From Phycisphaerae bacterium (GTDB lineage: Bacteria > Planctomycetota > Phycisphaerae > SM23-33): 64,000 nucleotides of DNA. Made by a program: the position numbers and the translations under genes. The stretch spans positions 53,256 to 117,255 of the forward strand of contig JBDKRA010000029.1 in NCBI GenBank assembly GCA_039683615.1. The letters are read 5' to 3'. Below the pieces are notes generated by a model. It ran no database searches. It saw only the letters and a program-made list of their open reading frames with translations, and had not been told where the DNA came from. Positions 4,882 to 52,619 of this stretch are shown here, in pieces (the first letter of the stretch is position 1; every line of letters begins with the position of its first letter).

Positions 4882-4890
4882 TTCCGTTTT

Positions 4891-4917: not shown

Positions 4918-4935
4918 ACCACTCACCACTGCTTA

Positions 4936-19790: not shown

Positions 19791-19797
19791 ATGGCAG

Positions 19798-27838: not shown

Positions 27839-27850
27839 TCAAACAACTCA

Positions 27851-28008: not shown

Positions 28009-28020
28009 GTCAGTCTTTCT

Positions 28021-30318: not shown

Positions 30319-30330
30319 GGCGACCCGCTT

Positions 30331-30407
30331 GAAACAAAAACGCGTGTCGCCATGCCACCCGACTGGGAGTTCAGGGACACGCACAACGGAGTTGTGCGTG
30401 GCACCCG
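30331..30407. repeat. Two adjacent repeat elements inside the flagellar operon (fliN-fliO spacer)
   Basis: 30331-30362 GAAACAAAAACGCGTGTCGCCATGCCACCCG is related to 27879-27948 and 35645-35672. 30372-30407 is near-identical to 1428-1464. Confidence 0.6.
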
Positions 30408-30458
30408 TCGCGCATGTCGCGGACGTCTCGCCCGCGTCTTGTTGTTTCCCTGCACGTT

Positions 30459-35123: not shown

Positions 35124-35132
35124 GACAGAGCA

Positions 35133-35474
35133 CTACGTCGCCGGCGCGCCCGAAAGCCGCAGGCGAATCTGCCCGAGCTTCATGCCCGAGGCCTTCAACT
35201 CTTCAATCGAATCCAATCGCTCGAACGCCGACTCGTCATAGAGCCGGTGCCCGCCGCGGGTCCAGCCGCATTCCTGCAGCAGCCCCATGGCCGTGTAGTT
35301 GTGGATCGTCTGGCGGCTGGCGCCGAGATAGTCGGCCAGTTCGCTGATGCGATAGACCTTAGGCGGCCGTCGCCGACCGCCGCGACTCGCCGCAGGCGTT
35401 ATGCCGCCACCAGACCCCACGCCGTCCGAGGAGCTGCCGGCAGGTGTCTGCGGATTTGTGTCTATCGCATCCAT
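35133..35474 (-). CDS. MerR-family transcriptional regulator
   Basis: HTH YRISELADYLGASRQTIHNYTAMGLL and a dimerisation helix. Start set at MDAID. Confidence 0.7.
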   Translation of the reverse strand: MDAIDTNPQTPAGSSSDGVGSGGGITPAASRGGRRRPPKVYRISELADYLGASRQTIHNYTAMGLLQECGWTRGGHRLYDESAFERLDSIEELKASGMKLGQIRLRLSGAPAT

Positions 35475-35611
35475 AAAGGTCTCAAGTGCTGCGCTCACGG
35501 TCGACCGGCTACTACTCTTTACGCTTTGCAAAATGTATAGCACCTGCGGCAAAGCAGCAACGGAAAAATCTTTAGAAAATCTGAAAAAAGTTACCGCCAC
35601 GACGATATGGG

Positions 35612-35657
35612 CGTCCTCAGCGACCTCAGCGGCTAACTAATCCCCCGGAAACAAAAA
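35612..35657. repeat. Partial copy of the 43370-43547 inverted-repeat element
   Basis: 25 nt (CGTCCTCAGCGACCTCAGCGGCTAA) identical to 43493-43517, then a similar tail (CTAATCCCCCGGAAACAAAAACG vs TTTAACCCCCAGAAATTGGTCGCAAAAACG). Confidence 0.6.
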
Positions 35658-35691
35658 CGTGTATCGCCATCCCGGCCGGTTCGCCGGTACA

Positions 35692-36819
35692 ATGTGGGCC
35701 ATGCGATTTATGGATTTGACCATCCTGGTTGCCATCGGCGTGGCCGCGATTCTTGGCGGGTGCAGGAAGGGGACATCCCCCACTTCGGCACCTGCCTCTG
35801 CGCCACTGCCGGCCAAGGCCGCTCAAGCCGGGCGGGAACAGAAAGACGGGCGAAAATCACCGGTGGCCGGATTGCAGCCCGGGGATCGGATCGTTTCGAT
35901 CGGAAGCCGAAGGGTCTCGGCCACTCGGCCGTCGCAGACTATGCAGGCCGTCGAGGCGGCGCGGGTTTCGGTAGCCGCGCAGGAATTTCTGCCGCCGCAA
36001 CGGCTGGCGGCATCGCGATCCGCGTCCGGTCCGCTGGACGCCGACCTTGTCGAGGGCGACGCCGCCTTGGCGGCAGGCAATCTGAGTGGGGCCGAGGCAG
36101 CGTTCCGGCGGCTGCTCGAACGCCGCCCCAAAGACTACGATGCCTTGTGCGGGCTGGCCACCACGCTGACGGCCGGCGGGCACAATCTGCCGGCCATGCT
36201 GGCCTATCAGCGCATCCTGGCGCTGCGGAAAGACGACCACACCGCGCGGTTCAACCTGGCGGTGGCGATGTCGCGGCTGGGGCGGTTCGACGAGGCCGAG
36301 CAGGAGTTCATCACCCTGCTCAAGCAGAACGCCGATGACGTGCGGGCCCGCTACAATCTGGCGATGGTGCTGGCCGCACATGGCAAGCTCGACGACGCCC
36401 GCTATCATCTTAAAGGCGTCGTGAGCCGCACCGACTCGCTGCCCTCAGCCTACGCCATTCTCGGCCAGGTGCTCATCGATCTGGGCGACGACGAAGGCGC
36501 GATGGAAGCCTACGGCAAGGCCGCCGCGCTCCAGGGCGACAACGTCGACAACTGGAAGAACTATGCCGCCGCCGCGCAGGCTGCCGGCAGCTACGGCCGG
36601 GCGATCTTGGCCGCGACGCGCGTGACGAAGCTCAACTCCTCCGACCCCGCCGCGTGGGCCTATCTGGGCGACTTGCACATGGCCGTGTACGAATCGACGC
36701 AGAAGGAGCACTTCCTGCGTCAGGCCCGCGAGGCCTGGATGCGGTCGCTGTCGCTTAATCCCGAACAGGAACCTCTTCGCGCCAAGCTGCGGGCCGCTCC
36801 GCGCCCGAAGGAGCCGTGA
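35692..36819 (+). CDS. TPR-repeat lipoprotein
   Basis: Lipobox LVAIGVAAILGGC. Multiple TPR motifs (AEAAFRRLLERRPKDYDALCGLA, ARFNLAVAMSRLGRFDEAEQEF, ARYNLAMVLAAHGKLDDA). The track ORF starts at GTG 35659; an internal ATG was chosen. Confidence 0.75.
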   Translation: MWAMRFMDLTILVAIGVAAILGGCRKGTSPTSAPASAPLPAKAAQAGREQKDGRKSPVAGLQPGDRIVSIGSRRVSATRPSQTMQAVEAARVSVAAQEFLPPQRLAASRSASGPLDADLVEGDAALAAGNLSGAEAAFRRLLERRPKDYDALCGLATTLTAGGHNLPAMLAYQRILALRKDDHTARFNLAVAMSRLGRFDEAEQEFITLLKQNADDVRARYNLAMVLAAHGKLDDARYHLKGVVSRTDSLPSAYAILGQVLIDLGDDEGAMEAYGKAAALQGDNVDNWKNYAAAAQAAGSYGRAILAATRVTKLNSSDPAAWAYLGDLHMAVYESTQKEHFLRQAREAWMRSLSLNPEQEPLRAKLRAAPRPKEP

Positions 36820-36823
36820 GATC

Positions 36824-37693
36824 ATGCTCGACCTGAAGACCTTCGCCAAAACCATCCGCGTCAGCGACGGCGCCTGGGGCACTGAACTGCAAACCGCCGG
36901 CCTTGTCGCCGGGGCTTCGCCGGAACTGCTCAACGTGGAGAATCCCGCCGCCGTGGCGGCCGTCGCCCGTTCCTACGTGCAGGCCGGCTCCGACGTCATC
37001 CTCACCAACACCTTCGGCGCCAACCGCTTCATCCTGGGCTCGCACCACCTTGCCGACCGCACGGCCGAACTCGCCCGCGCCGGGGCGGCCATCAGCCGCC
37101 GCGAGGCCGGCGACGCCGTCAAGGTCTTCGGCTCGATGGGACCCACCGGCAAGATCATGATGATGCAGGAGGCGCCCGAGGCCGAGATCGCAGCGGCTTT
37201 CGCGGAAGCGGCCGTCGCCCTGGCTGAAGGCGGCGTCGACGCGATCCTGCTGGAAAGCTTCGCGCAGCTCGACGAGATCTCGCTGGCACTTCGCGCGGTG
37301 CGTGAAGCAGTGGACCTGCCGGTAGTGGTCTCGATGACTTTCGCATCGGGTCCCGACGGCACGGCTACCATGATGGGCAACACCCCGGGCGACATGGCTG
37401 CCGTGGCGAAAGAGCACGGCGCCGCGGCTATCGGCGCCAACTGTGGCGCAGGCCCGGCGGGGTTCGTGAAAGTCGCCCGGCTCTTCCGAGCGGCCAGCGC
37501 CCTGCCGATCTGGATCAAGCCCAATGCCGGACTGCCCCAGCGCGGACCCGACGGCAAGACCTTCTTCCCCATGAGCCCCCAGGACTTCGCCGCCGCCGGC
37601 AAGTCGCTGATCGAAGCCGGCGCCAATTTCCTGGGCGGCTGCTGCGGCACCACGCCCAAACACATCGCCGCCGTGCGGCGAGTTGTGAGTTAG
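36824..37693 (+). CDS. Homocysteine S-methyltransferase (Hcy-binding domain) protein
   Basis: Pfam S-methyl_trans-like: DGAWGTELQ, ILTNTFGAN, zinc-ligand motif GGCCGTTP near the C-terminus. Confidence 0.8.
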   Translation: MLDLKTFAKTIRVSDGAWGTELQTAGLVAGASPELLNVENPAAVAAVARSYVQAGSDVILTNTFGANRFILGSHHLADRTAELARAGAAISRREAGDAVKVFGSMGPTGKIMMMQEAPEAEIAAAFAEAAVALAEGGVDAILLESFAQLDEISLALRAVREAVDLPVVVSMTFASGPDGTATMMGNTPGDMAAVAKEHGAAAIGANCGAGPAGFVKVARLFRAASALPIWIKPNAGLPQRGPDGKTFFPMSPQDFAAAGKSLIEAGANFLGGCCGTTPKHIAAVRRVVS

Positions 37694-37717
37694 CACTGCC
37701 TGCTAAAGGGGCTTCAC

Positions 37718-38152
37718 ATGATGGAAATGAGCATCACAGAACGGAAAGCACTTGAACGAATTGAAAAGGGTAGCAGGCGAACTGTGTTTTACTGGGCCAT
37801 TGATGGCTTTATCCTTTTTGTTCTGCTTTCAGTGTGCGTAGGGGCCTGCGGGCTCATGCTGGCAGCGATCGAGACCTATCATTTCTCCTCGTGGAAGGAG
37901 TTGGTGACACTGAGTATGCCAACACAATTGCAGCAGTCGGAAAGTCTCAGTGCATCAACCCGCCATATTGGGGCGATGTTTGTCTTGTTCCACGGCTGCG
38001 TGGCGTTCTTTTCTCTGCTGTTGTCGCTTCAACAACTCAATAACATCCTCATCTTGATACGTCAGGTAAGTGCTCACAAGGTAGCCGCACGACTCATCGC
38101 CCATCTCAAGGAACTGGGCGAGATTCCGTCGGGTCTGCCCAAGACTCGATAG
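37718..38152 (+). CDS. Hypothetical small membrane protein (low-GC gene)
   Basis: Two hydrophobic helices. Gene GC is noticeably below the surroundings. No family recognised. Confidence 0.4.
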   Translation: MMEMSITERKALERIEKGSRRTVFYWAIDGFILFVLLSVCVGACGLMLAAIETYHFSSWKELVTLSMPTQLQQSESLSASTRHIGAMFVLFHGCVAFFSLLLSLQQLNNILILIRQVSAHKVAARLIAHLKELGEIPSGLPKTR

Positions 38153-38157
38153 CAAAC

Positions 38158-38694
38158 TCACTGCGCCGGTGCGTTCTTCTGCTTTGCCAGGCGGGTGTCG
38201 AGATCCTGACGCGAGGGCAGCACGATCAAGTCGCCGCCGACAGTCAGGGCCACGTATCGGCTGCTGATGGACACCGGGTCGTAAACCAGGATGTTGTCGT
38301 GCCGGGAGTCTGTCTGCTGCCCGGGAAGATATACCAGGGCGACTTCTCGATCGCTGACGCTGACGAGAATGTTCGCCGGCAGGTCGCGCAAGTCGGCGAG
38401 TTTGGGCGGAAAGAGGCCTCGGTGGTCGTGGGCGTAGCTGAGCATCTGTCCGTAGATGTTGCGCAGGTTCGTCTGGGCGGCCACCATCGGCAGGTCGGGG
38501 CCGACGATGTTGATCGGCAGACCGCCCGCACCCGATCGCGGGCGCGCCTCGACGGCGCTGTCGGGCCCGGCGGGCGTCGAATCCATGCGCCGCACGACCA
38601 GCCATATCGTCGCGCCCAAGGCGGCAAATATCGCGATGATCCCCACGATCTGAATCTTCTTGCCGCCGCCGGATGGAGTTGGTGTTGGAGCCAT
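38158..38694 (-). CDS. Hypothetical membrane-anchored protein
   Basis: N-terminal TM helix IVGIIAIFAALGATIWLVV. Weak, unverified resemblance of NLRNIYGQMLSYAHDHRGLFPP to the planctomycete DUF1559 H-X9-DG region. Start set at MAPTP to avoid overlapping the HAD gene. Confidence 0.45.
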   Translation of the reverse strand: MAPTPTPSGGGKKIQIVGIIAIFAALGATIWLVVRRMDSTPAGPDSAVEARPRSGAGGLPINIVGPDLPMVAAQTNLRNIYGQMLSYAHDHRGLFPPKLADLRDLPANILVSVSDREVALVYLPGQQTDSRHDNILVYDPVSISSRYVALTVGGDLIVLPSRQDLDTRLAKQKNAPAQ

Positions 38695-38728
38695 TGAACT
38701 AATGATACTCCAGGAGTTCAAAGGATCA

Positions 38729-39379
38729 TCACAGCAGCTTGAGCAGATCCATCGGGTGGGCGAGCAGCGTTTGTGCGCCGGCGGCGGTGAGCTCCGCCCC
38801 CTGGCGGAAACCCCACAGCACGCCCACCGCGTACATGCCCGCAGCCACGGCCGTCTGCATGTCGGTGTTGGTGTCGCCGAGGTAGAGGATGCGATCGCAC
38901 GGCACATTGAGCCGCGCCGCGATGGCCACCGCCGCGGCCGGGTCGGGCTTGCGAGGCACGCCGTCCTGGGCGCCCTCGACCGCCGCAAAACGCCACGCCT
39001 TCAGCAGTTTGTGCACGCACTTGAGCGTGAAAGGGTGGGGCTTGTTGCTCAGGACCGACATTGGCAGCGCCCTGGCGGTCAACGCATCGAGCAGGTCGGC
39101 GATGCCCGGATACGGCCGCGTCCGATCGGCCCAGCACCGGGCGTAACGGTCGCGCTGCAGTTCGATGGTTCGTCGCACGAGTTCGTCGTCAGTGCCGCGC
39201 TGGCCCAGCGAACGGCGGGTGAACATCTCCAGCCCGTCGCCGACAAAGACCTTGTACGACTCCAGCGGATGCGTGGGCAGGGCCTGCGCCGCCAGGGCCG
39301 TGTTCATCGAATCGGCCAGGTCTTCCAGCGTATCCAGCAGCGTCCCATCGAGGTCGAAAATTACCGCGGAATATTCCAT
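38729..39379 (-). CDS. HAD-superfamily hydrolase (phosphoglycolate-phosphatase-like)
   Basis: Motif I VIFDLDGTLLD, motif II SVLSNK, motif IV GDTNTDMQTAVAAG. Only the C-terminal 216 codons of the 857-codon track ORF are coding. Confidence 0.85.
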   Translation of the reverse strand: MEYSAVIFDLDGTLLDTLEDLADSMNTALAAQALPTHPLESYKVFVGDGLEMFTRRSLGQRGTDDELVRRTIELQRDRYARCWADRTRPYPGIADLLDALTARALPMSVLSNKPHPFTLKCVHKLLKAWRFAAVEGAQDGVPRKPDPAAAVAIAARLNVPCDRILYLGDTNTDMQTAVAAGMYAVGVLWGFRQGAELTAAGAQTLLAHPMDLLKLL

Positions 39380-39436
39380 ACGGGCACATGATAGCGGAAC
39401 CACCGCAAGGATGAAGCCATTTTCCTTGACCGCAAG

Positions 39437-41566
39437 ATGAAAACCCCCGATAGAATGCTCTTTTGCCCAAAGGAGAGGACGTTGACCGCCACACAGACCA
39501 CACCGCAGACGCAGGACCCAGCGGAGAAACGCATCGAGGACGCCCGAACCATCGCCGACCATTTCGAGCAGTCCATCGCCATCACACCGCCGGAGATTCG
39601 CCCCGTCGGCGTCATTGCCGGCCCTCTGCACCGCAATACCGTGCCCAAAACCAACTGGGGCGGCGATAATCTGCACTACCCGATGGACGTCCGCACACTG
39701 ATGCGGTTGGGCGCGCCCGGCATCGCCGCTACCGCACGCACCAACGCCGCACGCCTCGCGCACGAGCAGGCCGACTACCTGCGCAACATCGCCCGCGCGT
39801 TCGACGCCGTCACGGCGTTCATCGCCGCGCACGCCAAGGCCGCCCAGGATCAAATGCCCGGCGCGACCACGGCCGAGCGCCGTCGCCTCAAGACCATCGC
39901 CGATAACTGCACCGCCCTGGCCGCCGGGCCGCCGCAGACCTTCGCCCAGGCCGTGCAGCTCTTCTGGTTCGTGCATTCGCTGCGCGGAATGGCCGACGTC
40001 TCCAGCACCATCGGCCGACTCGACCAGCACCTCGATCCGTTCTACAAAGCCGACATCGCCGCCGGCCGAATCACGCGCGACGAGGCCCTTGAGCTGACGT
40101 GCGAGTTGTGGCGGCTGCTGAACGTCGTGGTCTCGCACCCGGCGCAGGGGCTGATGAACCTGATGGTCGGCGGGCAGGACGCCGCCGGCAACGACGCCAC
40201 CAACGACATGTCGTACCTGCTGATCGACACGGCCATCGCCGTCAACGACACCAACCCGTTCCTCAGCGCCCGTATCCACGCCGGCAGCCCGGCAGCGTTT
40301 GTAGACAAAGTCGTCGAGCTGCAACTCGTCGGCCACGGGCAGGGCACGATATATAATGATGAGCTGATCATCCCCTCGCTGGTGCGTTACGGGGTGCCGA
40401 TCGAGTTGGCCCGCAACTACGCCAACGACGGCTGCAACGAGGTCACCATCGACGGGCAGTCGACCATCGACCTCAACCTCGTCGATTCGCTCAAGGCACT
40501 GGAGTACGTGATCTTCGACGGGGCCGACAACCCCTCCTGCCGCCAGCAGCCCAAGGCCACCTGCCGCAACTACGATACGCCCGGCCACCACACGGGCATG
40601 GCCGAGCCGGGCATCAAGACCGGCGACTTCGCCGCGATGACCAGCTTCGACCAGGTCTTCCAGGCCTTCTGCAAGCAGTTCTATCACCAGATCGACACGC
40701 GCCTGGAGCACTCCCGCCAGGGACGCATCTGGGCGGGCGACCACGCCGTCAGCGCCCCGGTGATGGCCGGGACGTTCGCCTCGGTGCTCGATAGCGGCCG
40801 GGACCCCTACCGCGGCGGCGTCGAGGTGCCGATCCTGTGCATGTTCCTGGGCTCGATGGGCACCGCCGGCGACGCCCTGGCGGCGATCAAGAAAGTCATC
40901 TTCGACGACAAGGCCGCCACGCCCGCCCAGCTTCGCGACGCCCTGGCCTCCGACTGGAAAGGCTTCGACGCGCTGCGCCGCCAGTGCCTCTCTGCACCCA
41001 AGTACGGCAACGATGACGACTACGTCGACAGCATTCTCGCAGCGGCCGTGCGCGGCGCCGTCGACCGCGTCAAAGCCGCCCCCGCAGCCCCTGGGCAGAC
41101 CGTTCTGCCGGCGCTGTTCAACCATGTGTTCCTCGCCACCGCCCAGAACTGCGGCGCCACGCCCGACGGGCGAAAGTGGATGGAACCGGTGGGCGAGCAT
41201 TTCTCGCCAGTCCCCGGCCGCGCCGTCAGCGGCCCCACCGCCGTCATCCGTTCGGCCACCAAGAGCCCGCTGGCCGACGCCGCCGGCGTGGCGATCTTCC
41301 ACGTGGGCCTCTCACGCGACATGGCCCCCAACAATGCCAGCGGCGCTGCCCTGGTTAAGAGCCTGCTCAAAGCCAGCCTCAAGATGGGCGCCACCGTGAT
41401 GAACACGGCGATCTACGACATCGAAACCCTCAAGGCCGCCAAGGCCCACCCCGAAAACTACGCCGACCTGATCGTGCGAGTGTGGGGCTACTCCGCAAGA
41501 TTCGTGGGCCTGTCCGCAGAAATGCAGGACCATATCATCGCCCGCGCGGTCAGGGACAAAAACTGA
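39437..41566 (+). CDS. Glycyl radical enzyme, pyruvate formate-lyase-like family
   Basis: KYGNDDDYVD block, Cys-loop-like NDGCNEV, C-terminal glycine-radical motif LIVRVWGYSARFVGLS (the canonical motif is RVSGY). Confidence 0.8.
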   Translation: MKTPDRMLFCPKERTLTATQTTPQTQDPAEKRIEDARTIADHFEQSIAITPPEIRPVGVIAGPLHRNTVPKTNWGGDNLHYPMDVRTLMRLGAPGIAATARTNAARLAHEQADYLRNIARAFDAVTAFIAAHAKAAQDQMPGATTAERRRLKTIADNCTALAAGPPQTFAQAVQLFWFVHSLRGMADVSSTIGRLDQHLDPFYKADIAAGRITRDEALELTCELWRLLNVVVSHPAQGLMNLMVGGQDAAGNDATNDMSYLLIDTAIAVNDTNPFLSARIHAGSPAAFVDKVVELQLVGHGQGTIYNDELIIPSLVRYGVPIELARNYANDGCNEVTIDGQSTIDLNLVDSLKALEYVIFDGADNPSCRQQPKATCRNYDTPGHHTGMAEPGIKTGDFAAMTSFDQVFQAFCKQFYHQIDTRLEHSRQGRIWAGDHAVSAPVMAGTFASVLDSGRDPYRGGVEVPILCMFLGSMGTAGDALAAIKKVIFDDKAATPAQLRDALASDWKGFDALRRQCLSAPKYGNDDDYVDSILAAAVRGAVDRVKAAPAAPGQTVLPALFNHVFLATAQNCGATPDGRKWMEPVGEHFSPVPGRAVSGPTAVIRSATKSPLADAAGVAIFHVGLSRDMAPNNASGAALVKSLLKASLKMGATVMNTAIYDIETLKAAKAHPENYADLIVRVWGYSARFVGLSAEMQDHIIARAVRDKN

Positions 41567-41601
41567 CCACAGAGACACGGAGGGGGATGAGGTAAAAACA
41601 G

Positions 41602-41714
41602 AGACTTTGCCACAAAGAGCACAAAGACCACGAAGAAGAAGACGAAGAGATTTGGTCCCCGTCACTCTCTGTGTTCTTTGTGACCTTTGTGGCAAAGCTT
41701 CTTCTTTCTTTTTG
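41602..41714. repeat. Long imperfect inverted repeat (CTTTGCCACAAAG...CACAAAG family) between the GRE gene and the next gene
   Basis: Left arm CTTTGCCACAAAGAGCACAAAGACCACGAAGAAGAAG and right arm CTCTGTGTTCTTTGTGACCTTTGTGGCAAAGCTTCTTC are reverse complements with a few mismatches. Confidence 0.5.
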
Positions 41715-41724
41715 CGAGAGCAAA

Positions 41725-43367
41725 CGATGAACATGCGAAATGGTCTGGTGGCATTGTCGGTGATCGTTCTTCTGGCCGCTTGCGGCTTCGCGGATGTGCC
41801 CAAGGTCCCCCCGCCGGTCGGGGCGCCGCTGGCGGCGAAGTGGGAGTATAGTCGCGACGGCGGCAAGACGTTCTCCCCTGAGGCGCCGGCGGTGACGGTC
41901 ACCAGCGGACCCGACGCCAAGAACGCCCTCGTCGCGCGGGCGACGTTCAGCATCGACGACATGGCGAAGATCGGCGCCGTAAAGATCGTGACGGCGTCTG
42001 GCACCGGGGCCTTCGCCCTGACCGACGCCGACAGCGTCCAGCGGCGGTACGTCGGGGCGTACCCCACGCTCGTCAACGCCAGGCTGGCCGTCAACGGCAA
42101 GGAGACCGACGCCGGGCATTTCCCCTCGCGTCTATACAACTATCTCACCATCGACCCGGACCTGCTGCACAAGGGCGCCAATACGCTGACAGTCGCCGCC
42201 GTGCTGTGGGCGCCGCCGACTGTTAAGACCGACGCTCCGGCCGGGCTGAGCCTGGAGACGCTCGGGACGGACATGGTCTCGCTCGACCGCGGGCCGACGC
42301 TGGGGGCCATCGGCGAGGACTACTTCACCTTCACCGCCCGCGCCGTCACGGCCTGCGATTTCAGCGTGAGCGTCAAGCCCATCGAGCCGGCCGGCGCGGA
42401 GACGCAGCAGGCCTTGCCCAAGGCGCGGCTGCTGCGGGCGAAGGTAGCGCTTGCCAAAGGAACGAAGAAGTTCGCCTACACGCTGACGGCCAAGTCGGCC
42501 GGCGGGGCGACCAAGGCGTACGGGCCTTACGAAGTGGTCGTGCCGGTCTTCGGCGAGGGGTTCAAGTTCGTCGCCGCGGCCAACACCTACATCTACGGGC
42601 ACCATCCCGAGGAGCTCAAGGCGTTCTTCGCCAAGCTGCCCTCGTCGGGCGGGCAGATCTTCGTGCATGGGGGCGTGATGCAGAACGTGGCCACCCACGA
42701 CCAGATGTGGACGAACGACTTCTTCTACTACAGCCGCGAGGCCCTGGCCCGCATGCCGATGTACGCTGTGCCGGGCTACCCCGACACGTACTCGATGGAA
42801 GCCTGGGGCAGCGAGTTCTACTTCCCCACCCCCGACGGGACATGGAATTACTGGACGCAGGCTTTCGGCAAGGTGCGGCTGATCGGGATCGAGGCGATGT
42901 CGATGATGGAGGACAAAGGCGCGGGCAAGGCCTGGCTCGAGGACGTGCTCAAGAACGCCAAGGAAGATTACGTCATCGTCTTCAACTCGCAGGCGCCAAA
43001 CTGCTCGGGCCAGAACGCCAAGTACTACTCAAAGCCGGCGGTGGAGTACATCGCCAAGGAGATCAGCCCGCTGCTGGTGAAGTACAAGGTGACGGCCACC
43101 ATCGGCAGCTACCACTACAGCTACCAGCGCAACGAGCCGCCGGCCGACGAGAGCGTCACGACGATCATGACCAGCAAGGCCGGCGGGCTGGGCTGGCCGC
43201 TGCGCACGGATTTCGTGGCCGCCAACAAAGAATCGAAAGTCGCCGTCGGATACAAGAACCACTACTGCCTCTTCGAAGTGACCAAAGACGCCCTGCAGAT
43301 GCAGGCGATAGCGTACGAGACCGGAGAGGTCATCGACAAGGTGACGTTCAAACCGCGGGCCAAGTAA
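41725..43367 (+). CDS. Hypothetical secreted lipoprotein
   Basis: Signal/lipobox LVALSVIVLLAACGF. ~545 aa. No confident family. Start placed at MNMRNG. Confidence 0.6.
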
Positions 43368-43369
43368 TT

Positions 43370-43547
43370 AGCCGCTGAGGTCGCTGAGGACGCTGAGGGG
43401 GAGGGATGGAATAGTGGAATAACGGAATAATGGACTTGGTCCTTTGACCGGTATTCCACCATTCCATCATTCCCTTGTTCGTTCTTCCTCAGCGTCCTCA
43501 GCGACCTCAGCGGCTAATTTAACCCCCAGAAATTGGTCGCAAAAACG
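43370..43547. repeat. MITE-like element with perfect 31-bp terminal inverted repeats
   Basis: TTAGCCGCTGAGGTCGCTGAGGACGCTGAGG (43370-43400) is the exact reverse complement of 43487-43517. The interior is also palindromic (GGAATAGTGGAATAACGGAATAATGG / CCACCATTCCATCATTCC). Partial second copy at 35612-35657. Overlaps the stop codon of the upstream gene. Confidence 0.6.
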
Positions 43548-45368
43548 TTACTTCGTCCTTCGATTTCCAAACCTCGAACTTCCCCGCCGCCCTTCGAACT
43601 TCACGCCTTCTCTCTTCTTGCTCTGCGATCTCTGCGTTCTCCGCGGTGAATCCTCCCCCGCCGGGGCGAGCAGGTAGTGCATCCGCAGGCGCTCGGCGTC
43701 GGTGCGGGCGACGGGGATGGCGTGGCCTTGCGGGTCGATTCCGGCGTAGAACATCGCCGCCGCGACCGTGCCCGGCAGCGGGATGAAGCACTGCACCTGC
43801 TGGGGCTTCCAGCCGCGCTGCTTGAGCCAGGCCGCGAGCTGCCGCATGTCGGCCTCGGTGCATCCGGGAAACGCGCTGATCAGATACGGCACGACGAACT
43901 GCTCCTTGCCCGCGCGCTGGCAGAGCCGCTCGAAGAGTTCGAGGAACTTCTCGAACGCCTCGGCGGGCGGCTTGCGCATCAGGCGCAGGACGCGGTCGGC
44001 GATGTGCTCGGGTGCGATCTTGAGCTGGCCGCCGACGAACTGGCCGATCAGCGTCTCGAGATACGCGCTGGAGCGCATCGCCAGGTCGTACCGCACGCCG
44101 CTGGCGACGCGGACGTTTTTGACGCCGCTGGTGGTCCGCACTTTCTCAAGCAGGGCCGCATTGGCGCCCTGGGCGTCGACGAAGTTGCGGCAGATCGCCG
44201 GCGTCAGGCAGCTCGCCCGCGTGCAGGTGGACGCGTCGCCGCTGCAGCGGGCGCCCCACATGTTGGCCGTGGGCCCGCCGACGTCGCTGATCGAGCCACG
44301 CCACTGCGCGTGGCGCGTCATCGCCTGGGCCTCGGCTTCAATCGAGCCGGCGCTGCGAGACGCGATGCGCCGCCCCTGGTGCGCCGCCAACCCGCAGAAC
44401 GAGCATCCGCCCGCGCAGCCGCGGTGGCTGGTGATGCTGAAGCGGATCATGTCGGCGGCCGGCACCGCCTCGCGGTACGACGGGTGCGGCTCGCGCGTGA
44501 ACGGCATGGCGTAGATCGCGTCGAGCTCCTCGCCCGTCACCGGCGACGGCGGCGTGAGGATGAGGCTGCGGCCCTCGACGCTCTGCACCGCCCACGCGCC
44601 CTGGTGCACCTGGCGCTCCTGGGATAGCGTGGCTTCCATCAAGGCCGCGGGATCGGCCAGCATCTCCTCGTGCGAGGGCAGGCGGATGACCGCCGCCCCT
44701 TCCGGGATGTCGCTCTCGTTGCCGATGAACGCCGCGCCGCCAATGGCCGCAAACGCACGGCTGCGCGCGGCGCGGTCGACGTCGCCGGCGAGCGTTTCAA
44801 ACGCCGCCGCGGCCGCCAGGATCGACCGCTCGGCCATCCCGTACAGCAGCAGGTCGGCCTTGGCGTCGAGCAGGATCGCCCGGCGGAGCTTGTCGGTCCA
44901 GAAGTCGTAATGCGTGATGCGCCGCAGCGAGGCCTCAATGCCCCCCAGCACGATCGGCAGGCCGGGCATGGCCTGTTTGACCAGCCCCGCGTAGACCAGC
45001 GCCGCGCGGTTGGGCCGCCGCCCCGCCGCCCCGCCGGGCGTGTACGCGTCGTCGCTGCGCTTCTTGCGAAACGCCGTGTAGTGCGCCAGCATCGAATCCA
45101 GCGCCCCGGCCGTCACGCCGGCGAACAGCCGCGGCCGCCCCATCGCGACGATGTCGTCAGGCCGGTCCCACCGCGGCTGCGCGACGATGCCCATGCGGTA
45201 CCCGTGCGTCGCCAGCCACCGCCCCAGCACGGCCACGCCGAAGGACGGATGGTCCACGTACGCGTCGCCGCTGACAAGCAGGACATCGAGCTCGCGCCAG
45301 CCCAGGCGGTCCATCTCGGCCCGCGTCATCGGCAGCACGCCGCTGTAGGATTTACTGTGCTCACTCAT
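43548..45368 (-). CDS. YgiQ-family (UPF0313) radical SAM protein
   Basis: N-terminal YgiQ-type domain ([17 protein letters not shown]), radical SAM cluster motif CAGGCSFC, C-terminal extension. Confidence 0.8.
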
Positions 45369-45482
45369 TGTCCAGGCAGCTCTCAGCTCTCAGTTGTCAG
45401 CCGGCACCTATGCTAATGTTTGTACGTTGGAGAAAGCCGCCCGTGGTCAGCCATTCGCACTGCTTACTGACTAGTGAATTAC

Positions 45483-47945
45483 TTACTTTTTCCTATGCTT
45501 CCCCGCATGCTTGTGGGGTCGTGCGGCGCCGTCCATGGCGGCCCTTAACACGTCGTCGACGGTCTTGGCGAAGATGAATTTCAGGTCCTTCTGGGCGTCG
45601 GGGGGCACGTCGACAAGATCCTTGCGGTTACGTTCGGGCAGGATGATGGTGTTGATGCCCGCGCGTTTGGCGGCTAACACTTTTTCTTTCACTCCGCCGA
45701 TGGGCAACACGAGCCCGCGCAGGGTAATCTCGCCGGTCATGGCCACATCGTGGCGGACGGGTTTGGCCATCAGCAGGCTGGCCAGCGCGGTGAACATCGC
45801 CACGCCGGCGGAGGGGCCGTCCTTGGGCACGGCGCCAGCGGGCACGTGCACGTGGATATCGGTATCGGAAAGGCTCGTCGGCAGCAGGTGCAGGTCGGCG
45901 GCGCGGCTCTTGATGAGACTCATCGCCGCCTGGGCCGACTCCTTCATCACGTCGCCGATCTGTCCGGTGAGGGTGAGATTGCCCTTGCCGGGGTATCCGG
46001 CGGCCTCGATGAAGATGATCTCGCCGCCGGTGGGCGTGTACGCCAGGCCGGTGGCCACGCCCGGCACGCTGGTGCGCTGGGCGAGTTCGTTTTCATATCG
46101 CGGCGGCCCGAGCGTCTCGGCGATGAGCTTGCTGTCGATGGTGCGCTGGTGCTCCTTGCCCTCGGCCACCAGGGCCGCCACCGCGCGGCAGACGGCCCCG
46201 ATCTGTCGTTCCAGTTCGCGCACGCCGGCCTCGCGGGTGTAGCTGTCGATGATCTCGAGCAGCGCCTTGTCGGGCCAGTTCACCTGGGCGGTCTTGAGAC
46301 CGTTGTCGGCAAGCTGTCGCCTGACGAGGTACCGCCGGGCGATCTCGAGCTTTTCGCTGCGCGTGTAGCCGGGCAGCTCTATGACCTCCATGCGGTCGCG
46401 CAGGGCCGGAGGCACCGGAGCCATGTAGTTGGCCGTACCGATGAACAGCGTCTTGGACAGGTCGAAGGGCACGTTGAGGTAGTGGTCCTGGAACGAGTTG
46501 TTCTGTGCCGGGTCGAGCACCTCCAGCAGGGCGCTGGTGGGGTCGCCGCGGAAGTCGGCGCCGACCTTGTCCAGCTCGTCGAGCATGAAGACCGGGTTGT
46601 TCGTGCCGGCCTTGCGGATCTCCTGCACCACGCGCCCGGGCATGGCGCCGATATACGTGCGCCGGTGGCCGCGCAATTCCGCTTCGTCGTGCATGCCGCC
46701 CAGGGACATGCGGATGAACTTGCGCCCCATGGCCCGCGCGATGGACTGGCCCAGCGAGGTCTTGCCCACGCCGGGCGGGCCGACGAAGCACAGGATCGGC
46801 CCGTGGCTCTCCGGCGCGAGCTTGCGCACGGCCAGGAACTCGAGGATGCGCCGCTTGATCTTCTCCAGGCCGTAATGGTCCTCGTCGAGGATGCGGCGCG
46901 ACGTGCCAATCTCGAGCTTGTCGGTGCTGCTGACCGACCATGGCAGCTCGATCATCCAGTCCAGGTACGTGCGGATGACGTGGTATTCCGGCGAGGCGCT
47001 GGGGATCTTCTCCATGCGCTCCAGCTCGCGGACAGCTTCCTTGAGCACCAGCTCGGGCATGCCGGAGGCGTCGATCTTCTTGTGCAGATCCTCCAGCTCG
47101 ACGGTGCGATCGTCACCCTGGCCCAGCTCGTTCTGGATGGCTTTAAGCTGCTCCTGCAGGTACATTTCGCGCTGGCTCTTGGTGATCTTGGCCTTGACGT
47201 CGTCCTGGATCTTCTGCGACAGCTGTAACACTTCGATATAGTGCTGCAGTTCGTTGACGATGCGCCGCAGGCGCCGCCCCACCGAAAGCTCCTCGAGCAT
47301 CTCCTGCTTCACGGCGACATCCAGTTGCAGGTTCGTGGCCAGGAAGTCGCTCAGGGCCCCGGCGGTGTCGATGTTGTTGAGCACGACGGCGGCCTCGTCG
47401 GGAATATTCGGCGACAACTCGATGATGCGCCGCGCCAGGTCGCGCGCGTTAATCATCAGGGCCTCGATCTCGTTGGATTGCTCGGCCTGATCGTTCATCA
47501 CCGCAATGCGGGCCTTGAAGAACGGCTGCGTCTGCATCCACTGTTCGATCCGCACGCGCGACAGCCCCTGGACGATGATGCTCTGCGTGTTCTCCTCCAG
47601 GCGCAGCAGCTTGAGGACCATGACGGCCGTGCCGAACTGGTAGAGCTCCTCCGGCGAGGGGTCTTCGGTGTTGGCGTCTCTCTGGCAGACGGTGATAATG
47701 ATTTTCTGGTCGGGCAGGACGCTCTCGATCAGGTGCCGCGACTTGTCGCGCCCGATCGACAGCGGGACGACCGTTCCCGGAAAGAGCACCAGGTTCCGCA
47801 CCGCCAGCACCGGCGCCTCGCTGGGGATGGAGACGGCGGTTTCTTCGCCCTCGCCCGGCGCGCCAGGCCGGCGAGCGGCGGGAATGACGGCCACGCCCGA
47901 ATCATCGTCGCCGACAATCGGTGTTTTGTTTTTTTCGCGTGCCAC
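45483..47945 (-). CDS. lon: ATP-dependent Lon protease
   Basis: LON N-domain, AAA+ Walker A GPPGVGKTS, Walker B FMLDELDK, proteolytic-domain serine motif PKDGPSAG. Confidence 0.95.
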   Translation of the reverse strand: MAREKNKTPIVGDDDSGVAVIPAARRPGAPGEGEETAVSIPSEAPVLAVRNLVLFPGTVVPLSIGRDKSRHLIESVLPDQKIIITVCQRDANTEDPSPEELYQFGTAVMVLKLLRLEENTQSIIVQGLSRVRIEQWMQTQPFFKARIAVMNDQAEQSNEIEALMINARDLARRIIELSPNIPDEAAVVLNNIDTAGALSDFLATNLQLDVAVKQEMLEELSVGRRLRRIVNELQHYIEVLQLSQKIQDDVKAKITKSQREMYLQEQLKAIQNELGQGDDRTVELEDLHKKIDASGMPELVLKEAVRELERMEKIPSASPEYHVIRTYLDWMIELPWSVSSTDKLEIGTSRRILDEDHYGLEKIKRRILEFLAVRKLAPESHGPILCFVGPPGVGKTSLGQSIARAMGRKFIRMSLGGMHDEAELRGHRRTYIGAMPGRVVQEIRKAGTNNPVFMLDELDKVGADFRGDPTSALLEVLDPAQNNSFQDHYLNVPFDLSKTLFIGTANYMAPVPPALRDRMEVIELPGYTRSEKLEIARRYLVRRQLADNGLKTAQVNWPDKALLEIIDSYTREAGVRELERQIGAVCRAVAALVAEGKEHQRTIDSKLIAETLGPPRYENELAQRTSVPGVATGLAYTPTGGEIIFIEAAGYPGKGNLTLTGQIGDVMKESAQAAMSLIKSRAADLHLLPTSLSDTDIHVHVPAGAVPKDGPSAGVAMFTALASLLMAKPVRHDVAMTGEITLRGLVLPIGGVKEKVLAAKRAGINTIILPERNRKDLVDVPPDAQKDLKFIFAKTVDDVLRAAMDGAARPHKHAGKHRKK

Positions 47946-47948
47946 AAC

Positions 47949-48365
47949 TCACCCCTTTTTGGGAAGGCGGATGGTCAAGAAGCCCAGGCGATAACCGGCG
48001 GATATTTCCGCGGTGTTCACGTCGGGAGGCAGTTTCAGCGCCCGCTGGAAGTGCCCCTGGTCGATCTCCATCAGGTGCATGCGGAGACGCTTGTCCTTGC
48101 TGGGCGGGTTGGGCATGTCGCGCTCGCCCGAAAGCACCAGGCGGTCGGACTCGACGCTCAGGTCGATCGCCGCGATGTCCACGCCCGCCAGGTCCACCAG
48201 CACGAAATAGGCCACCGAATCCTCGTACAGGTTGACCGATGGCGCCCAGCTGCGATCGACGGCATACTTGTGAAACGTGGTCGTCAGAACATTGTCCACC
48301 CAGGAGTAGAGATCCTGATTGCGACGTGCCATCTTTCCTGCCGCATCGATATGTATCGTCGACAT
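47949..48365 (-). CDS. Hsp20/alpha-crystallin family small heat-shock protein
   Basis: Alpha-crystallin domain (VNLYEDSVAYFVLVDLAGVD...LSGERD...GFLTIRLPK). 3 nt upstream of lon. Confidence 0.8.
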   Translation of the reverse strand: MSTIHIDAAGKMARRNQDLYSWVDNVLTTTFHKYAVDRSWAPSVNLYEDSVAYFVLVDLAGVDIAAIDLSVESDRLVLSGERDMPNPPSKDKRLRMHLMEIDQGHFQRALKLPPDVNTAEISAGYRLGFLTIRLPKKG

Positions 48366-48543
48366 GCCGTTGTCCTTTCGCTGCCTGCGGTATGGGCATG
48401 GCCATTTCTGCCGCTCAATTTCCTGGCCCACATCCTGGAAGCTGCTGCAAATCTGTAGGTATTATACCCTCTCTTGTGCGTCGTTGCCCGCCCCTGATTC
48501 ACATAATGGCGAAACAGCGCCCACAGGGCGGGGTTTCATGTAG

Positions 48544-50124
48544 ATGCTGAAAGGATATTCAGTGAAAACTATTGGCATGATCGTAATCCTTGGGACTCTC
48601 TGTGCAACCTCCATCATGGCGGCCGACCCTGCGGCGCCGGGCCAGTTGGGCAATGTCGCACCGTGGAGCCAGAAGGACTTCGTCAACCCGCCGCTGAAAT
48701 GTATGGAGCGGTATCTGCGATTCGACGTGTTTCCGATCGTCGGCTGGTGCTTCCACGGCGACCGGCAGAGGGATCCCAAACGCCGCCAACCGTACGACGA
48801 GTCGTACTGCGAACAGGCCAAGGCCGCCGGGTTCACCGTGCTGGTCGACGACGACCGCATGCTCGAGCCCTGCCGCAAGACGAACATGCGGCTGATCATC
48901 CCGACGTTCCGCGTCACGCCCGACCATCTGGAGGACCGATTCTTCAAGAAGGCTGATGTCGGCGACCACCCGGCCCTGCTGGGCTTCGTGATGGACGACG
49001 ACTGCATGGGCGTGACCGGGCAGGTGATCCGCACGGCCGCATGGCTCAAGGGCACGCACCCGCACCTGGCGGCGTTCGTGTCGAAGTACCCCACGCGCGA
49101 CCCGCAGACCAACACCGAGTGCCGCATCCTGGCGACGATGAACTACCAGTTCATGAAGGGCAAGGGCGGCGCGTGGTCGCGCATTCGCTACTACGCCGAG
49201 ATGGAACACGAGCGGAACGTCTGTAACAAGGGCAACCTGGCCATGTGGCCCATCATCTTCGGCCACACGTACAGCGAGCACCGCTTCAGCATCACCGCGG
49301 GTCTGGCATACGGGGCGCAGGGCTTCATCTACTTCGCCTACCTGCCGCACAAACTGCAGTGGATGATCCCCGAGCGGCTGGACTTCCACAAGAACTCAGG
49401 CGACATCCAGACCTATGCGTGGAAAGTAATCGGCCGCCACCTCTGGGGCACGCGAAGCTTGGGCGTGTACCAGACCGATTATGAAGGCGACACGCACGGC
49501 AGCGCCCTCAAGTGCGGACCCGACCAGGTTGTGCGCGAGATGGACCAGGCGCTGCTGGCGGGCATGCTCGTCGTCGAGAGCCGCATGCCGGCCGCGGGGC
49601 AGAAGGTCACGCCCGACTACATCATGGTCGGCGACAAGCGCGCCGCTCGCAGGGGCGACGATCCGCCGCTGCGCAAGACCTGGATCGCCCTGGGTGGCGA
49701 GATCCCGGTCGTCGAGATCCTCGACCGCGACGCGATGGACCCCAAGGCCCCCCGCAAGTTCTGCCCCGGACGCTACGTCCCCATCGAGCTCAAAGGCGGC
49801 GATGGCGTCCTGCTGCGGGCCAATCCTGCGGACGTTGAAAAGGTCCTGGGCGCCGAGGCTGCCAAGGCCCTGACGGAGTTGGCGGCCGAGTTGAACAAGA
49901 TCTCAGCCGGCGACGCCAAAGCCTGCGACGCCGCCAAGGGCGCCGCCGACAAGCTCAAAGCCGCCCTCGACGCGGCTGTCAAAGACAAAAAGGTTTCCGC
50001 CGCCCAGGCCGACGCCGTGATGAAATGCGTTGCCGCCGCCATTGAAGGCCTGCGAACGCCCCCGCCTCCGCCGCCGGCGCCCCCGGCTGCTGCCCCGGCG
50101 CCGCAGCCCAAAAAGCAGGGATGA
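48544..50124 (+). CDS. Hypothetical secreted protein with Ala/Pro-rich C-terminus
   Basis: Signal peptide IVILGTLCATSIMAADP. ~525 aa. No family recognised. Confidence 0.55.
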   Translation: MLKGYSVKTIGMIVILGTLCATSIMAADPAAPGQLGNVAPWSQKDFVNPPLKCMERYLRFDVFPIVGWCFHGDRQRDPKRRQPYDESYCEQAKAAGFTVLVDDDRMLEPCRKTNMRLIIPTFRVTPDHLEDRFFKKADVGDHPALLGFVMDDDCMGVTGQVIRTAAWLKGTHPHLAAFVSKYPTRDPQTNTECRILATMNYQFMKGKGGAWSRIRYYAEMEHERNVCNKGNLAMWPIIFGHTYSEHRFSITAGLAYGAQGFIYFAYLPHKLQWMIPERLDFHKNSGDIQTYAWKVIGRHLWGTRSLGVYQTDYEGDTHGSALKCGPDQVVREMDQALLAGMLVVESRMPAAGQKVTPDYIMVGDKRAARRGDDPPLRKTWIALGGEIPVVEILDRDAMDPKAPRKFCPGRYVPIELKGGDGVLLRANPADVEKVLGAEAAKALTELAAELNKISAGDAKACDAAKGAADKLKAALDAAVKDKKVSAAQADAVMKCVAAAIEGLRTPPPPPPAPPAAAPAPQPKKQG

Positions 50125-50140
50125 ACACGGATGAAAGAAA

Positions 50141-50198
50141 GTTGTGAGTTGTGAGTTGTGAGTTGTGGATTCTTTCTCACCACGCACAACTCACAACT
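50141..50198. terminator. Strong bidirectional terminator hairpin (GTTGTGAGTTGTG repeats) between convergent genes
   Basis: (GTTGTGA)x3-GTTGTGG / CCACGCACAACTCACAACT stem of ~20 bp with an 11-nt loop. The right arm overlaps the stop codon of the M81 peptidase gene. Confidence 0.55.
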
Positions 50199-51612
50199 GA
50201 AGCGCAGCGTCTTCATCCAGCGGCCAGATCGGGCGCTTCAGGTGCTTGAAGGGCAGGCGGTCGAGGCGCAGGTCGGTGTAGCCGGGGCTCAGGGCCATCA
50301 GGCCCAGCGGGGCGTTGTCGCGGACGTCCGGCCAGAGGTAGCCCTGCTTGACGACGGCGATCTTCTTCTTGAAGACGTCCACGCCCATCTTCTCGAAATA
50401 CCAGACCATGACGAACGGCCAGCGGTCCGACTGCAGCACGACCTCGACGCCGCCGGTGGCCACCAGCGCCCGCGGACCGCCGGCGCCACTGTCGGTCACC
50501 AGGCGAATGATCTTCACGCGCGCGGCCAAAGGCTTGCAGAATGTGGAGTCGAGCTTGCCGCCGATGCTCAGGTCGATCTCGGTGCCTTCGCCGGCAGCGA
50601 AGCAGGCCTGCACCGCCGCAGGGTCGGTGATCCCGCCCACGATGGCGTCTTTGACCCCCAGGGCAATCAGGCGCTGAAGGATGATGGTGCTGTCGCCGCC
50701 GCCGCCGGCCGTCGGATTGTCGCCGCTGTCCGAGATGAACACCGGCGCCTCCGGCGCCGCCAGCGCAGCCGCGATCGTCGCGTCCGCTTCGGCCACCGGC
50801 ATGTCCGGACCGAACTCCTCCCGCCGCGACCAGATCTCCCTCGCCAGCGCCCGGGCCTGGCGTTTCACTGCCGCGGCGTCAGTGCCGCTGACGAGCACGC
50901 TCACGCCGGTGTGCGGGCTATCGGTCCAGGCGCAGCCGATGAGAATCGACGAGGTCAGAATCCCCGGCACGGCGTCGATTTCTTCCAGCCGCGCGTAGAG
51001 CGACTTGGCCGGCTCGACTTCCGTCACCGCCCACTCGCCCGTCAGCAACAGCGGCAGCTTGATCAGTTCCGTCACCGGCCGCACGTTCTGCTCCAGACAC
51101 TGCATCATCAGCTTCAATGCGCGCTGGGAGGTTTCGGCGCAATCGCGATGCGGGGCCGTGCGGTAGGCGGTCAGGAAGTCGCAGGCATGGACGAACTGCG
51201 GCGAGAGGTTGCCGTGCAGGTCCAGCGTGCCGCAGATGAAGACCCTATCGCCGGTGACAGCCCGGATGCGGCGCAGCAACTCGCCTTCGCCGTCGCCGAT
51301 CTCCTCCACTTCCATCGCCCCGTGCAGCCCCATGAACAGCGCGTCCAGCGGCATCGCCGCCGCGATCATCTCCACCATCTCGCCGGCAATGCGGTCGAAG
51401 GCGTCTTTGGTGATGCGCCCCGCCGGACCGGCCGAGGCGTATATCAGCCCCGCCACCTCGTGCCCGGCGGCCGCAAGCTCCTGCCAAAAACCGTCTTTGA
51501 CCAGGCCGCTGCCGCGTGCGATGCCGAAGTCTTCATACCGCGTGGGCATCGTCGAGAAGGTGTTGGTCTCATGCGACCAGCCGGCCGTGGCTATTCGCAT
51601 AACGATCTCCAT
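50191..51612 (-). CDS. M81-family metallopeptidase (MlrC-like, DUF1485/DUF1205)
   Basis: MRIATAGWSHETNTF N-terminus typical of MlrC-like proteins. ~470 aa. Confidence 0.65.
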   Translation of the reverse strand: MEIVMRIATAGWSHETNTFSTMPTRYEDFGIARGSGLVKDGFWQELAAAGHEVAGLIYASAGPAGRITKDAFDRIAGEMVEMIAAAMPLDALFMGLHGAMEVEEIGDGEGELLRRIRAVTGDRVFICGTLDLHGNLSPQFVHACDFLTAYRTAPHRDCAETSQRALKLMMQCLEQNVRPVTELIKLPLLLTGEWAVTEVEPAKSLYARLEEIDAVPGILTSSILIGCAWTDSPHTGVSVLVSGTDAAAVKRQARALAREIWSRREEFGPDMPVAEADATIAAALAAPEAPVFISDSGDNPTAGGGGDSTIILQRLIALGVKDAIVGGITDPAAVQACFAAGEGTEIDLSIGGKLDSTFCKPLAARVKIIRLVTDSGAGGPRALVATGGVEVVLQSDRWPFVMVWYFEKMGVDVFKKKIAVVKQGYLWPDVRDNAPLGLMALSPGYTDLRLDRLPFKHLKRPIWPLDEDAALQL

Positions 51613-51855
51613 GATGTCATCAACAGGTTCATGCTCGTTCCGATCGCGAAGAGCATTCTAGCGTCACCTGCGGCAGAATCAAAAGAGTTCAAAGCGTTTG
51701 GATATCTTCGCACACCAATACGTGAATTCCTGCGACCCTACCTCACTGCTGCGGTGTTAAATGTAACATGGACAGGAACGGACCGACCCGCTGGCGGGAC
51801 TGCTGCCGTTCCTGAGACGCCGGATAAACCTGTTTCGTTATTGGGAAAGATCACC

Positions 51856-52467: not shown

Positions 52468-52619
52468 AGCCGGCGTTCTGCTGCCAACGTCGAGAATCGA
52501 GGAGGCGTCCTTCCGGATGCCTCCTCGTTTTTTTGCACTGCCCGGCAAAAACTTTTGGCCGTTGGCCCGCGCTCTGCCATAATTGGCCTGGATCGCTTTC
52601 TGTGAAACGGAGACCGCTC

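Follow-up and report, generated by a model that had tools for sequence, protein, structure and literature searches.

The DNA examined here, a 64,000-nt stretch of contig JBDKRA010000029.1 that we call the window, comes from a metagenome-assembled genome (MAG) of a Phycisphaerae bacterium, and the best named relatives of the organism are Tepidisphaerales/Phycisphaerae. The content of the window is that of an ordinary chromosome, including enolase, sigma factors, ExbBD, a flagellar export operon, Lon, Hsp20, and glutamine synthetase. Toward its right-hand part, a gene for a 546-aa secreted protein whose family is not known (41727–43367, with a TAA stop at 43365–43367) converges on a YgiQ-type radical-SAM gene (43548–45368), and the spacer between the two holds a 154-bp element (43366–43519). 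The gene coordinates bear out the original prediction on this point: the element lies between two convergent genes and overlaps the TAA stop of the first, while the stop of the second, at 43548, falls 28 nt past the end of the right arm. Another assembly from this population (GCA_021371965.1), more fragmented than the first, is identical to the window across 35284–53367, element included, so the element is no contig-end artefact. At its own contig end, in the 3′ region of a MerR gene, that assembly diverges: comparison of positions 1–210 of the segment (L008) with window 35073–35283 gives 15 mismatches in 130 nt and then no alignment, a divergence confined to the contig end that may represent a strain variant or an assembly chimera. 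Close by, a single ORF of 637 aa on the minus strand (33219–35132) combines YscJ/FliF with FliG (N, M, and C) domains and looks like a FliF-FliG fusion.

The element is bounded by two outer arms, recovered by an inverted-repeat search at 43366–43398 and 43487–43519, that are complementary at 33 of 33 positions and separated by 88 nt; the 31-mer first described as a perfect terminal inverted repeat is therefore correct and extends by a further AA/TT on each side. Read 5′ to 3′, the left arm (module A), which includes the final 2 nt of the TAA of the 546-aa gene, is composed of AA, a TTAGCC tag, and three 9-nt units in which GCTGAGG recurs with TC and then AC in between (TRF, period 9, 2.9 copies). 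The right arm is its reverse complement and ends in GGCTAA plus TT. The interior, also predicted to be palindromic, is an imperfect palindrome of 88 nt, evident both from the fold and from its 8-nt tandem units (ATGGAATA, 3.6 copies, and ATTCCACC, 2.6 copies, by TRF). Its inner 5′ arm (module E, 43399–43434) consists of a G-rich linker and GGAATnnn units, gggatGGAATagtGGAATaacGGAATaatGGA (period 8, 3.6 copies), and pairs in the minimum free energy (MFE) fold with the inner 3′ arm, ggtATTCCaccATTCCatcATTCCc (43450–43474; period 8, 2.6 copies). Between these, the apical region (43435–43449) forms a small GGAC/GUCC hairpin in both MFE and centroid structures. A T-rich bulge, ttgttcgttctt (43475–43486), lies 5′ of the right arm and is unpaired in the folds of both strands, and an outer tail, TAACCCCCAGAAA...CAAAAACG (43520–43547), recognised by alignment with sequence beside a solo copy of the arm, reaches the YgiQ stop. 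The element's own ORFs are short and spurious only.

Folded as RNA, the 191-nt stretch 43350–43540 attains −116.3 kcal/mol on the plus strand and −124.5 kcal/mol on the minus strand (z = −12 and −14, respectively), with none of 200 shuffled sequences equally stable. A single arm, by comparison, shows no self-folding (−1.0 or −0.4 kcal/mol), with 195–196 of 200 shuffles at least as stable. The arm motif occurs five times in the window, against 0.23 occurrences expected. One of these sites is the partial second copy included in the original prediction, a solo module-A arm of two units plus GGCTAA (35611–35636, plus strand) that matches the right arm at 26 of 26 positions and is followed by a similar flank, CTAATCCCCCGGAAACAAAAACG (35637–35660, plus strand; similar to 43518–43547), with the partner arm absent as predicted. 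Over a 41-nt stretch the solo copy and the right-arm region are 90% identical, the likeness running ~25 nt past the arm's outer end, and a search around 35611–35636 found neither partner arm nor structure. The claim that this copy lies between a MerR gene (35124–35474, minus strand) and a TPR gene (from 35701, plus strand) also stands, with one correction: these genes are divergent, and the solo copy thus occupies a promoter/5′ region, not gene 3′ ends.

Judged by sequence comparison, the repeated and conserved unit is the arm, of ~31–35 nt, and not the 154-bp element. In consensus, TAGCC as a tag precedes three units of 9 nt (GCTGAGG plus 2 nt), usually with AAGAA as well; the GCTGAGG core hardly varies, TC and AC are mostly retained as the 2-nt spacers, and the inner units are variable. 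All 17 matches to GCNGAGGNNGCNGAGG in the loci that we fetched, among them the arms of L016, which was chosen independently of that pattern, are preceded by TAGCC, with the tag reading TTAGCC or ATAGCC. We scanned one representative genome per species, JGI metagenomes, and IMG/VR, collections from which the source genome is absent, with the exact pattern CCTCAGCGNCCTCAGCGGCTAA. Seven loci were recovered from the representative genomes, against 0.27 expected under a uniform-composition model, and three further loci from the JGI metagenomes, with no match in IMG/VR. The scan yielded solo arms in spacers of Planctomycetota MAGs (L004 and L006) and an inverted arm pair in a spacer of a Planctomycetota MAG (L007); a solo arm also stands 25 nt upstream of a tRNA gene in L010. 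One match (L003) was set aside as a coincidence within a coding region. Arm pairs in L016 and L025 and a solo arm in L026 were instead found via protein neighbours, independently of the pattern.

Arms of identical sequence (up to 31/31 or 35/35) turn up at loci without homology to one another, both in this genome and in no fewer than five further Planctomycetota MAGs, and identical 31-mers occur in the window (twice), in L007, and in L026. Arms are found solo or as inverted pairs, the latter with 80–290 nt between them, and their contexts include spacers, divergent promoter regions, and the inside of operons. Three arms were counted in ~93 kb of this genome and three in 43 kb of a relative, which would extrapolate to roughly one arm locus per 20–45 kb. 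A blastn search of the element against plasmids and phages gave no match. Rfam 15, applied at the gathering score to the window and nine loci, returned tRNAs only, and at E ≤ 10 the element drew miRNA-precursor matches below threshold that merely reflect its long hairpin. The idea of a Chi-like or otherwise over-represented oligomer was rejected, with 8 of the 11 CCTCAGCG sites of the window sitting in three arms. Outside the Planctomycetota, an identical 22-mer (TTAGCC, GCTGAGG, NC, GCTGAGG) appears in four Acidobacteriaceae contigs from MAGs and a peat metagenome (L001 3549–3570, L002 2634–2655, L005 7753–7774, and L011 3429–3450). There it sits in nested REP-like palindromes of its own and continues as GGCTAAAGCC, with a GGCT-AA-AGCC mini-hairpin; the sharing may stem from common origin, transfer, or convergence.

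What lies between paired arms is highly variable. The interior described above, 88 nt of GGAAT units, has no further copy in ~93 kb of the same genome or in any fetched locus. Its counterpart in L025 is 114 nt of TGGAT units with a T-rich bulge, identical to the window interior at 44 of 88 positions, and those of L007 and L016 (the latter 80 nt) are unrelated. The L007 interior contains an 84-aa ORF (2100–2354, minus strand) with coding-like GC1 and GC2, a GC3 of 0.60 against 0.82–0.85 in the flanking genes, and no Pfam match; this ORF might be cargo, or it might have been inserted into the loop of the hairpin. Module E, for its part, is found again in this genome 3.8 kb past the window end (L024 14747–14826), where it forms an inverted pair of its own, so the 154-bp element is a nested combination of two independent modules.

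The arm pairs of L007 and L016 offer a comparison at a shared position, the HlyD/ABC-ATPase junction of operons whose ATPases share 84% identity. The numbers of units are not the same in the two pairs (3+3 versus 2+3), and differences between the paired arms are uncompensated; selection therefore seems to act on arm sequence and not on pairing, which hints, as far as sequence can tell, at a sequence-specific binding partner. In more distant relatives, the same HlyD/ABC and ABC/ABC junctions are occupied by long hairpins that are unrelated in sequence, a GTAG-tagged REP dimer among them (L017 2822–2965 and 3945–4225; L016 1650–1765), and structured elements seem to be kept at those operon junctions while their sequence is replaced.

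The closest comparison for the 154-bp element itself is L025, the locus of a member (P0256, MAG ABFD92) of the 546-aa protein cluster, which is identical to the window at 84.7% of nucleotides over the PFL and 546-aa genes and at 89.5% over YgiQ. Gene order and the hairpin of the PFL/546 spacer are retained in L025, yet the orthologous 546/YgiQ spacer there is of unrelated sequence, with the A arm absent. The alternative of a conserved terminator, which would predict the same sequence at the orthologous site and no copies elsewhere, is unsupported on both counts. An A-armed hairpin does exist in L025 (7433–7615, −109 kcal/mol, z = −10.7), 2.3 kb from the orthologous spacer and just upstream of PFL in a divergent promoter region, where the window lacks one; its bulge (7557–7581) is longer than the T-rich bulge of the window and of the same kind. 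Synteny with the window ends at this hairpin, a rearrangement breakpoint seen in one case. The window right arm together with AAGAA (43482–43516) matches the left arm of the L025 hairpin (7435–7469) at 35 of 35 positions in reverse complement. Such a match by descent at 87% background identity has a probability below 1% (0.87^35), and the family is thus strongly sequence-constrained or homogenised. An unselected 21.6-kb sample of the relative (L026) contributed one more solo arm, identical at 31 of 31 positions. Given that the locus was gained or lost since the split from a relative of 85–89% identity, the family turns over quickly. The element is absent as well in relatives at ~70% identity (546-aa orthologues at 67–69%, YgiQ at ~70%), which were rejected as a source of an empty site because synteny is broken and the distance too great.

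The repeats also appear to rewrite the 3′ ends of genes. Stop codons occur within the arm in two of three frames (T-TAG; TT-AGC-CGC-TGA), and the arm supplies the stop codon of the upstream gene in L007, L004, and L016, while in the window it abuts and overlaps that stop. The final codons of the 546-aa gene (43358–43367) and those of YgiQ differ from the 85–89% identical relative, and the C-terminal tail of the window YgiQ (~30 aa, within 43548–43652) has no counterpart in any homologue compared. Within this tail lies an arm-like module, CTCTGCGAT-CTCTGCGTT-CTCCGCGG-TGAA (43618–43652, minus strand; TRF period 9), which takes the form of three CTCTGCGnn units plus GGTGAA and has a copy in L025 at ~466–500.

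Repeat hairpins of this general construction are frequent in the lineage. In the window we found at least five further long hairpins with arms of 7–9-nt tandem units, distributed between genes in a variety of settings: a GTAGCCN ×4 hairpin between two plus-strand genes (2123–2233; genes 1474–2121 and 2277–2933), whose GTAGCC repeats within the arm (2131–2160) form a different arm family; a GTAGCC-type hairpin downstream of a tRNA (19792–19892); a CACAGAGG hairpin between fliR and flhB, within the flagellar export operon (27846–28014); a CCACAAAGA hairpin in the PFL/546 spacer (41580–41710); an AGTTGTG ×4 hairpin (AGTTGTG/ACTCACC) between convergent genes (50141–50208; genes 48562–50124, plus strand, and 50191–51600, minus strand); and an additional spacer hairpin (4890–4935). 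Further modules in the same genome and the relative include GGATTnnnn, CGTCCTCGTCG, and GGATCGAGGATCTA, and the GTAGCCA family is found in L016 and L026 as well. It is not a general rule that the purine-rich arm leads: a CGTCCTCG-type hairpin (L024 13204–13291) has the opposite polarity. The genome also has canonical intrinsic terminators, each a GC-rich stem plus U7 (~52497–52535 and ~59540–59578), and the organism thus employs ordinary terminators alongside the long repeat hairpins.

Several shorter or dispersed repeats accompany these hairpins. REP-like short palindromes (...GCACAAC-nnn-GTTGTGC..., with flanks GGGTGCC/GTCCCTGA) are present in four copies in ~93 kb of this genome (window ~1425–1465 and ~30368–30410; L015 ~9824–9868; L024 ~18050–18090). 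A 46-nt repeat beginning GGGTGGCATGGCGACAcgcg surrounds the flagellar genes as an 85% identical inverted pair with members 2.4 kb apart (window 27896–27941 and 30316–30361), and occurs also in the related MAG (L025 ~20177 and L026 ~14021). Finally, a ~50-nt repeat of GGGAGTGCG followed by four GGATTnnnn units is present six times within 21.6 kb of this genome, and a CGTCCTCGTCGTCGTCCTCGTCCTCGTCGTCGGTTTTT repeat lies upstream of several of its genes; sites of these two modules are L015 1456, 2066, 2129, 8202, 9887, and 21268, L015 8258 and 9940, L024 13204, and L025 7655.

We lean, with modest confidence, toward reading the element as one member of an interspersed-repeat family that is specific to its lineage and found in Planctomycetota MAGs, a mosaic resembling BIMEs, REPINs, and “TIR repeats” that forms hairpins at the RNA level. 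The two possibilities raised in the original prediction, a REP/BIME-like family and a recently mobilised MITE, thus part ways: the former is the better fit, and the latter falters on the interiors, which are not shared among copies. From its distribution, the dispersed family is probably mobile, and it could spread by transposition with a trans-acting enzyme or by recombination and template switching. As for function at the RNA level, we infer that transcripts from either convergent gene would fold into a very stable hairpin, with a perfect basal duplex of 33 bp and without a U-tract. At the 3′ ends of mRNAs such a hairpin would probably act as a barrier or be a target of processing. Its duplex is of sufficient length for cleavage by RNase III and for strong protection against 3′–5′ exonucleases, and the hairpin might also insulate the two convergent genes from each other. 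A pure 3′-end function leaves the arms in promoter regions (window 35611; L025 7433–7615) unexplained.

If the element were instead a classical MITE, it would be a non-autonomous derivative of a DDE transposon, for example a TA-duplicating one, recently inserted at the TA-rich stop region and mobilised in trans via its terminal inverted repeats. We regard this as unlikely, even though it accounts well for the perfect terminal repeats, the small size, and the lack of coding capacity, and for the presence/absence polymorphism at orthologous sites of close relatives. TA is found just outside GCCGC...GCGGC in every paired copy, bar the right end of L025, but the flanking TA/AATT is self-complementary and therefore unreadable as a target-site duplication, being indistinguishable from an extension of the repeat; moreover, the relative offers no clean empty site, as its spacer differs throughout and so do the tails of both genes. 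Similarly, although the L007 arms bracket a low-GC3, foreign-looking ORF in cargo-like fashion, interiors in general go unshared (50% identity, compared with 100% for the arms), and the interior of the window element is itself a repeat module that occurs separately. Solo arms are common, the solo copy still resembles the right-arm region for ~25 nt past the supposed terminus, and an arm pair has been kept at an orthologous junction over 16% protein divergence with its unit number changed, all of which speak against a classical MITE. No transposase, RAYT and TIRYT included, was detected by Pfam in the window or beside arms (~45 proteins), and hence none with these terminal repeats; the perfect 33/33 arms would at the same time fit the very recent insertion of a true transposon. 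An integron attC site, which would have R″ (RYYYAAC) before R′ (GTTRRRY) in an imperfect palindrome behind a cassette ORF, was rejected: the ends TTAGCC...GGCTAA each have a mismatch to the core sites and stand in reversed order, and in L007 arms lie on both sides of the ORF.

A bolder proposal, which we consider distinctly unlikely, is that the arm is the recognition array of a trans-acting enzyme and that the elements constitute a novel, modular class of mobile DNA in Planctomycetota, able to form hairpins. The shared 22-mer would then point to a related form in Acidobacteriota, and the elements would carry cargo ORFs (as in L007), rewrite stops and C-terminal tails, and punctuate operons. 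They would also be part of a repertoire of modules (GTAGCCN, CACAGAGG, GGAATnnn, GGATTnnnn, and AGTTGTG) that fills the intergenic space of these genomes.

A related explanation, improbable in our estimate yet compatible with the one we favour, holds that the arm is an array of binding sites, with a 7-nt core every 9 nt, three times over, for a sequence-specific DNA- or RNA-binding protein, the hairpin being secondary. Such a protein might, for example, belong to the nucleoid, take part in recombination, or regulate by binding RNA, and the inner module, rich in GGA, could act by titrating a CsrA-like protein. The near-invariance of GCTGAGG while the 2-nt spacers vary is what such an array would produce, as are the differences that go uncompensated between the paired arms of L007 and L016, the single arms kept partnerless at many loci, and the GGA or GAGG motifs spaced at 8–9 nt in many modules. 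On the contrary, the motifs are buried in duplex wherever arms are paired, several other arm families lack GGA or GAGG altogether (GTAGCCN and AGTTGTG), and a candidate protein was not identified.

That the element is no repeat-family member but a locus-specific, bidirectional intrinsic terminator conserved for these two convergent genes is very improbable, and the comparison with L025 largely refutes this reading as far as sequence conservation goes. Its exact position between the genes and the very strong hairpin on both strands are what would commend it. Set against them, a downstream T run is absent on both strands (AAUUUAACCCCC and AAUUACUUGG), so that canonical intrinsic termination is unlikely, and a terminator scan did not report the element in a genome that uses canonical stem-plus-U7 terminators elsewhere. 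The element is missing, besides, from the orthologous spacer of the 85–89% relative and from the ~70% relatives, and promoter regions and operon interiors carry these arms too. Finally, chimeric reads can yield perfect palindromes and the source is a MAG, but a fold-back chimera is highly improbable for an element that lies mid-contig with unique genes on either side, is carried identically by the second assembly, and shares its architecture with independent MAGs from other projects.

Read as members of an interspersed-repeat family, these elements matter in several respects, although current understanding is not overturned by their discovery. Interspersed palindromic repeats affect mRNA stability, operon polarity, and genome rearrangement, and to our knowledge they have been characterised almost exclusively in Proteobacteria and a few pathogens, whereas here an uncultured lineage of Planctomycetota appears to own a rich set of them. 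The building principle is unusual—arms of 7–9-nt tandem units that do not fold on themselves and pair only with an inverted partner—and the arm is better conserved than adjacent coding DNA, yet shifts between spacers over short times. For the annotation of MAGs, this implies that C-terminal tails may be spurious or remodelled and that contigs may break at repeats. The arm also provides a defined sequence with which to seek the responsible enzyme or binding protein.

Compared with known systems, the element shares with intrinsic terminators a stable hairpin directly downstream of two convergent genes, but its stem is several times longer, it is without a U-tract, the orthologous site is unconserved, and arms are also found upstream of genes. 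Among bacterial repeats, the Correia elements of Neisseria (CREE/NEMIS) and other bacterial MITEs (ERIC, RUP) are ~100–155 bp long, have terminal inverted repeats of ~26 bp, insert beside genes, and are transcribed as hairpins that are cut by RNase III, affecting mRNA stability or termination. These families have a conserved interior and clear TA duplications, whereas here the interior is unconserved and sequence similarity to them is nil. Pneumococcal BOX elements are modular, with boxA, a variable number of boxB, and boxC, and their partly complementary terminal modules give a stable fold; their modules are, however, of 45–59 bp and unrelated sequence, belong to a different phylum, and are not made of 7–9-nt tandem units.

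In the literature searched, we found no description of this family, the nearest being an account of REP and TIR repeats (PMC3733652). The “TIR repeats” or TIRtrons described there, non-REP inverted repeats associated with TIRYT tyrosine transposases, occur as singles, dimers, and groups in moderate abundance, with reports from Acidobacteria and from a planctomycete, R. baltica (Di Nocera et al. 2013, PMC3733652). Membership requires a TIRYT gene flanked by arms, and our elements are likened to them by description only. Elements of the REP/BIME/REPIN type, known with RAYT from Proteobacteria, comprise extragenic singlets and inverted dimers, form mosaics of motifs, and carry a conserved tag at one end; their dimer hairpins are located at gene 3′ ends and inside operons, and both REP dimers and TIR repeats have variable spacers of 20–100 bp (PMC3733652). 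A REP unit is itself a stem-loop of 20–40 nt, whereas the arm described here is three tandem 9-mers without self-structure and thus falls outside the strict definition of a REP; its tag is (T/A)TAGCC in place of GTAG or CGTC, and no RAYT like that of REP/REPIN systems was found in the 64 kb. The kind of feature, an interspersed palindromic repeat, is ordinary, and its construction and lineage are new within the literature searched. The likeness to REP/BIME/REPIN families nonetheless runs through the whole organisation: solo arms and inverted pairs, variable spacers, a mosaic of modules A and E, and an extragenic location, with the other copies placed in operons, after stops, and upstream of genes, as are REP/BIME, ERIC, and Correia elements and not as dedicated terminators would be.
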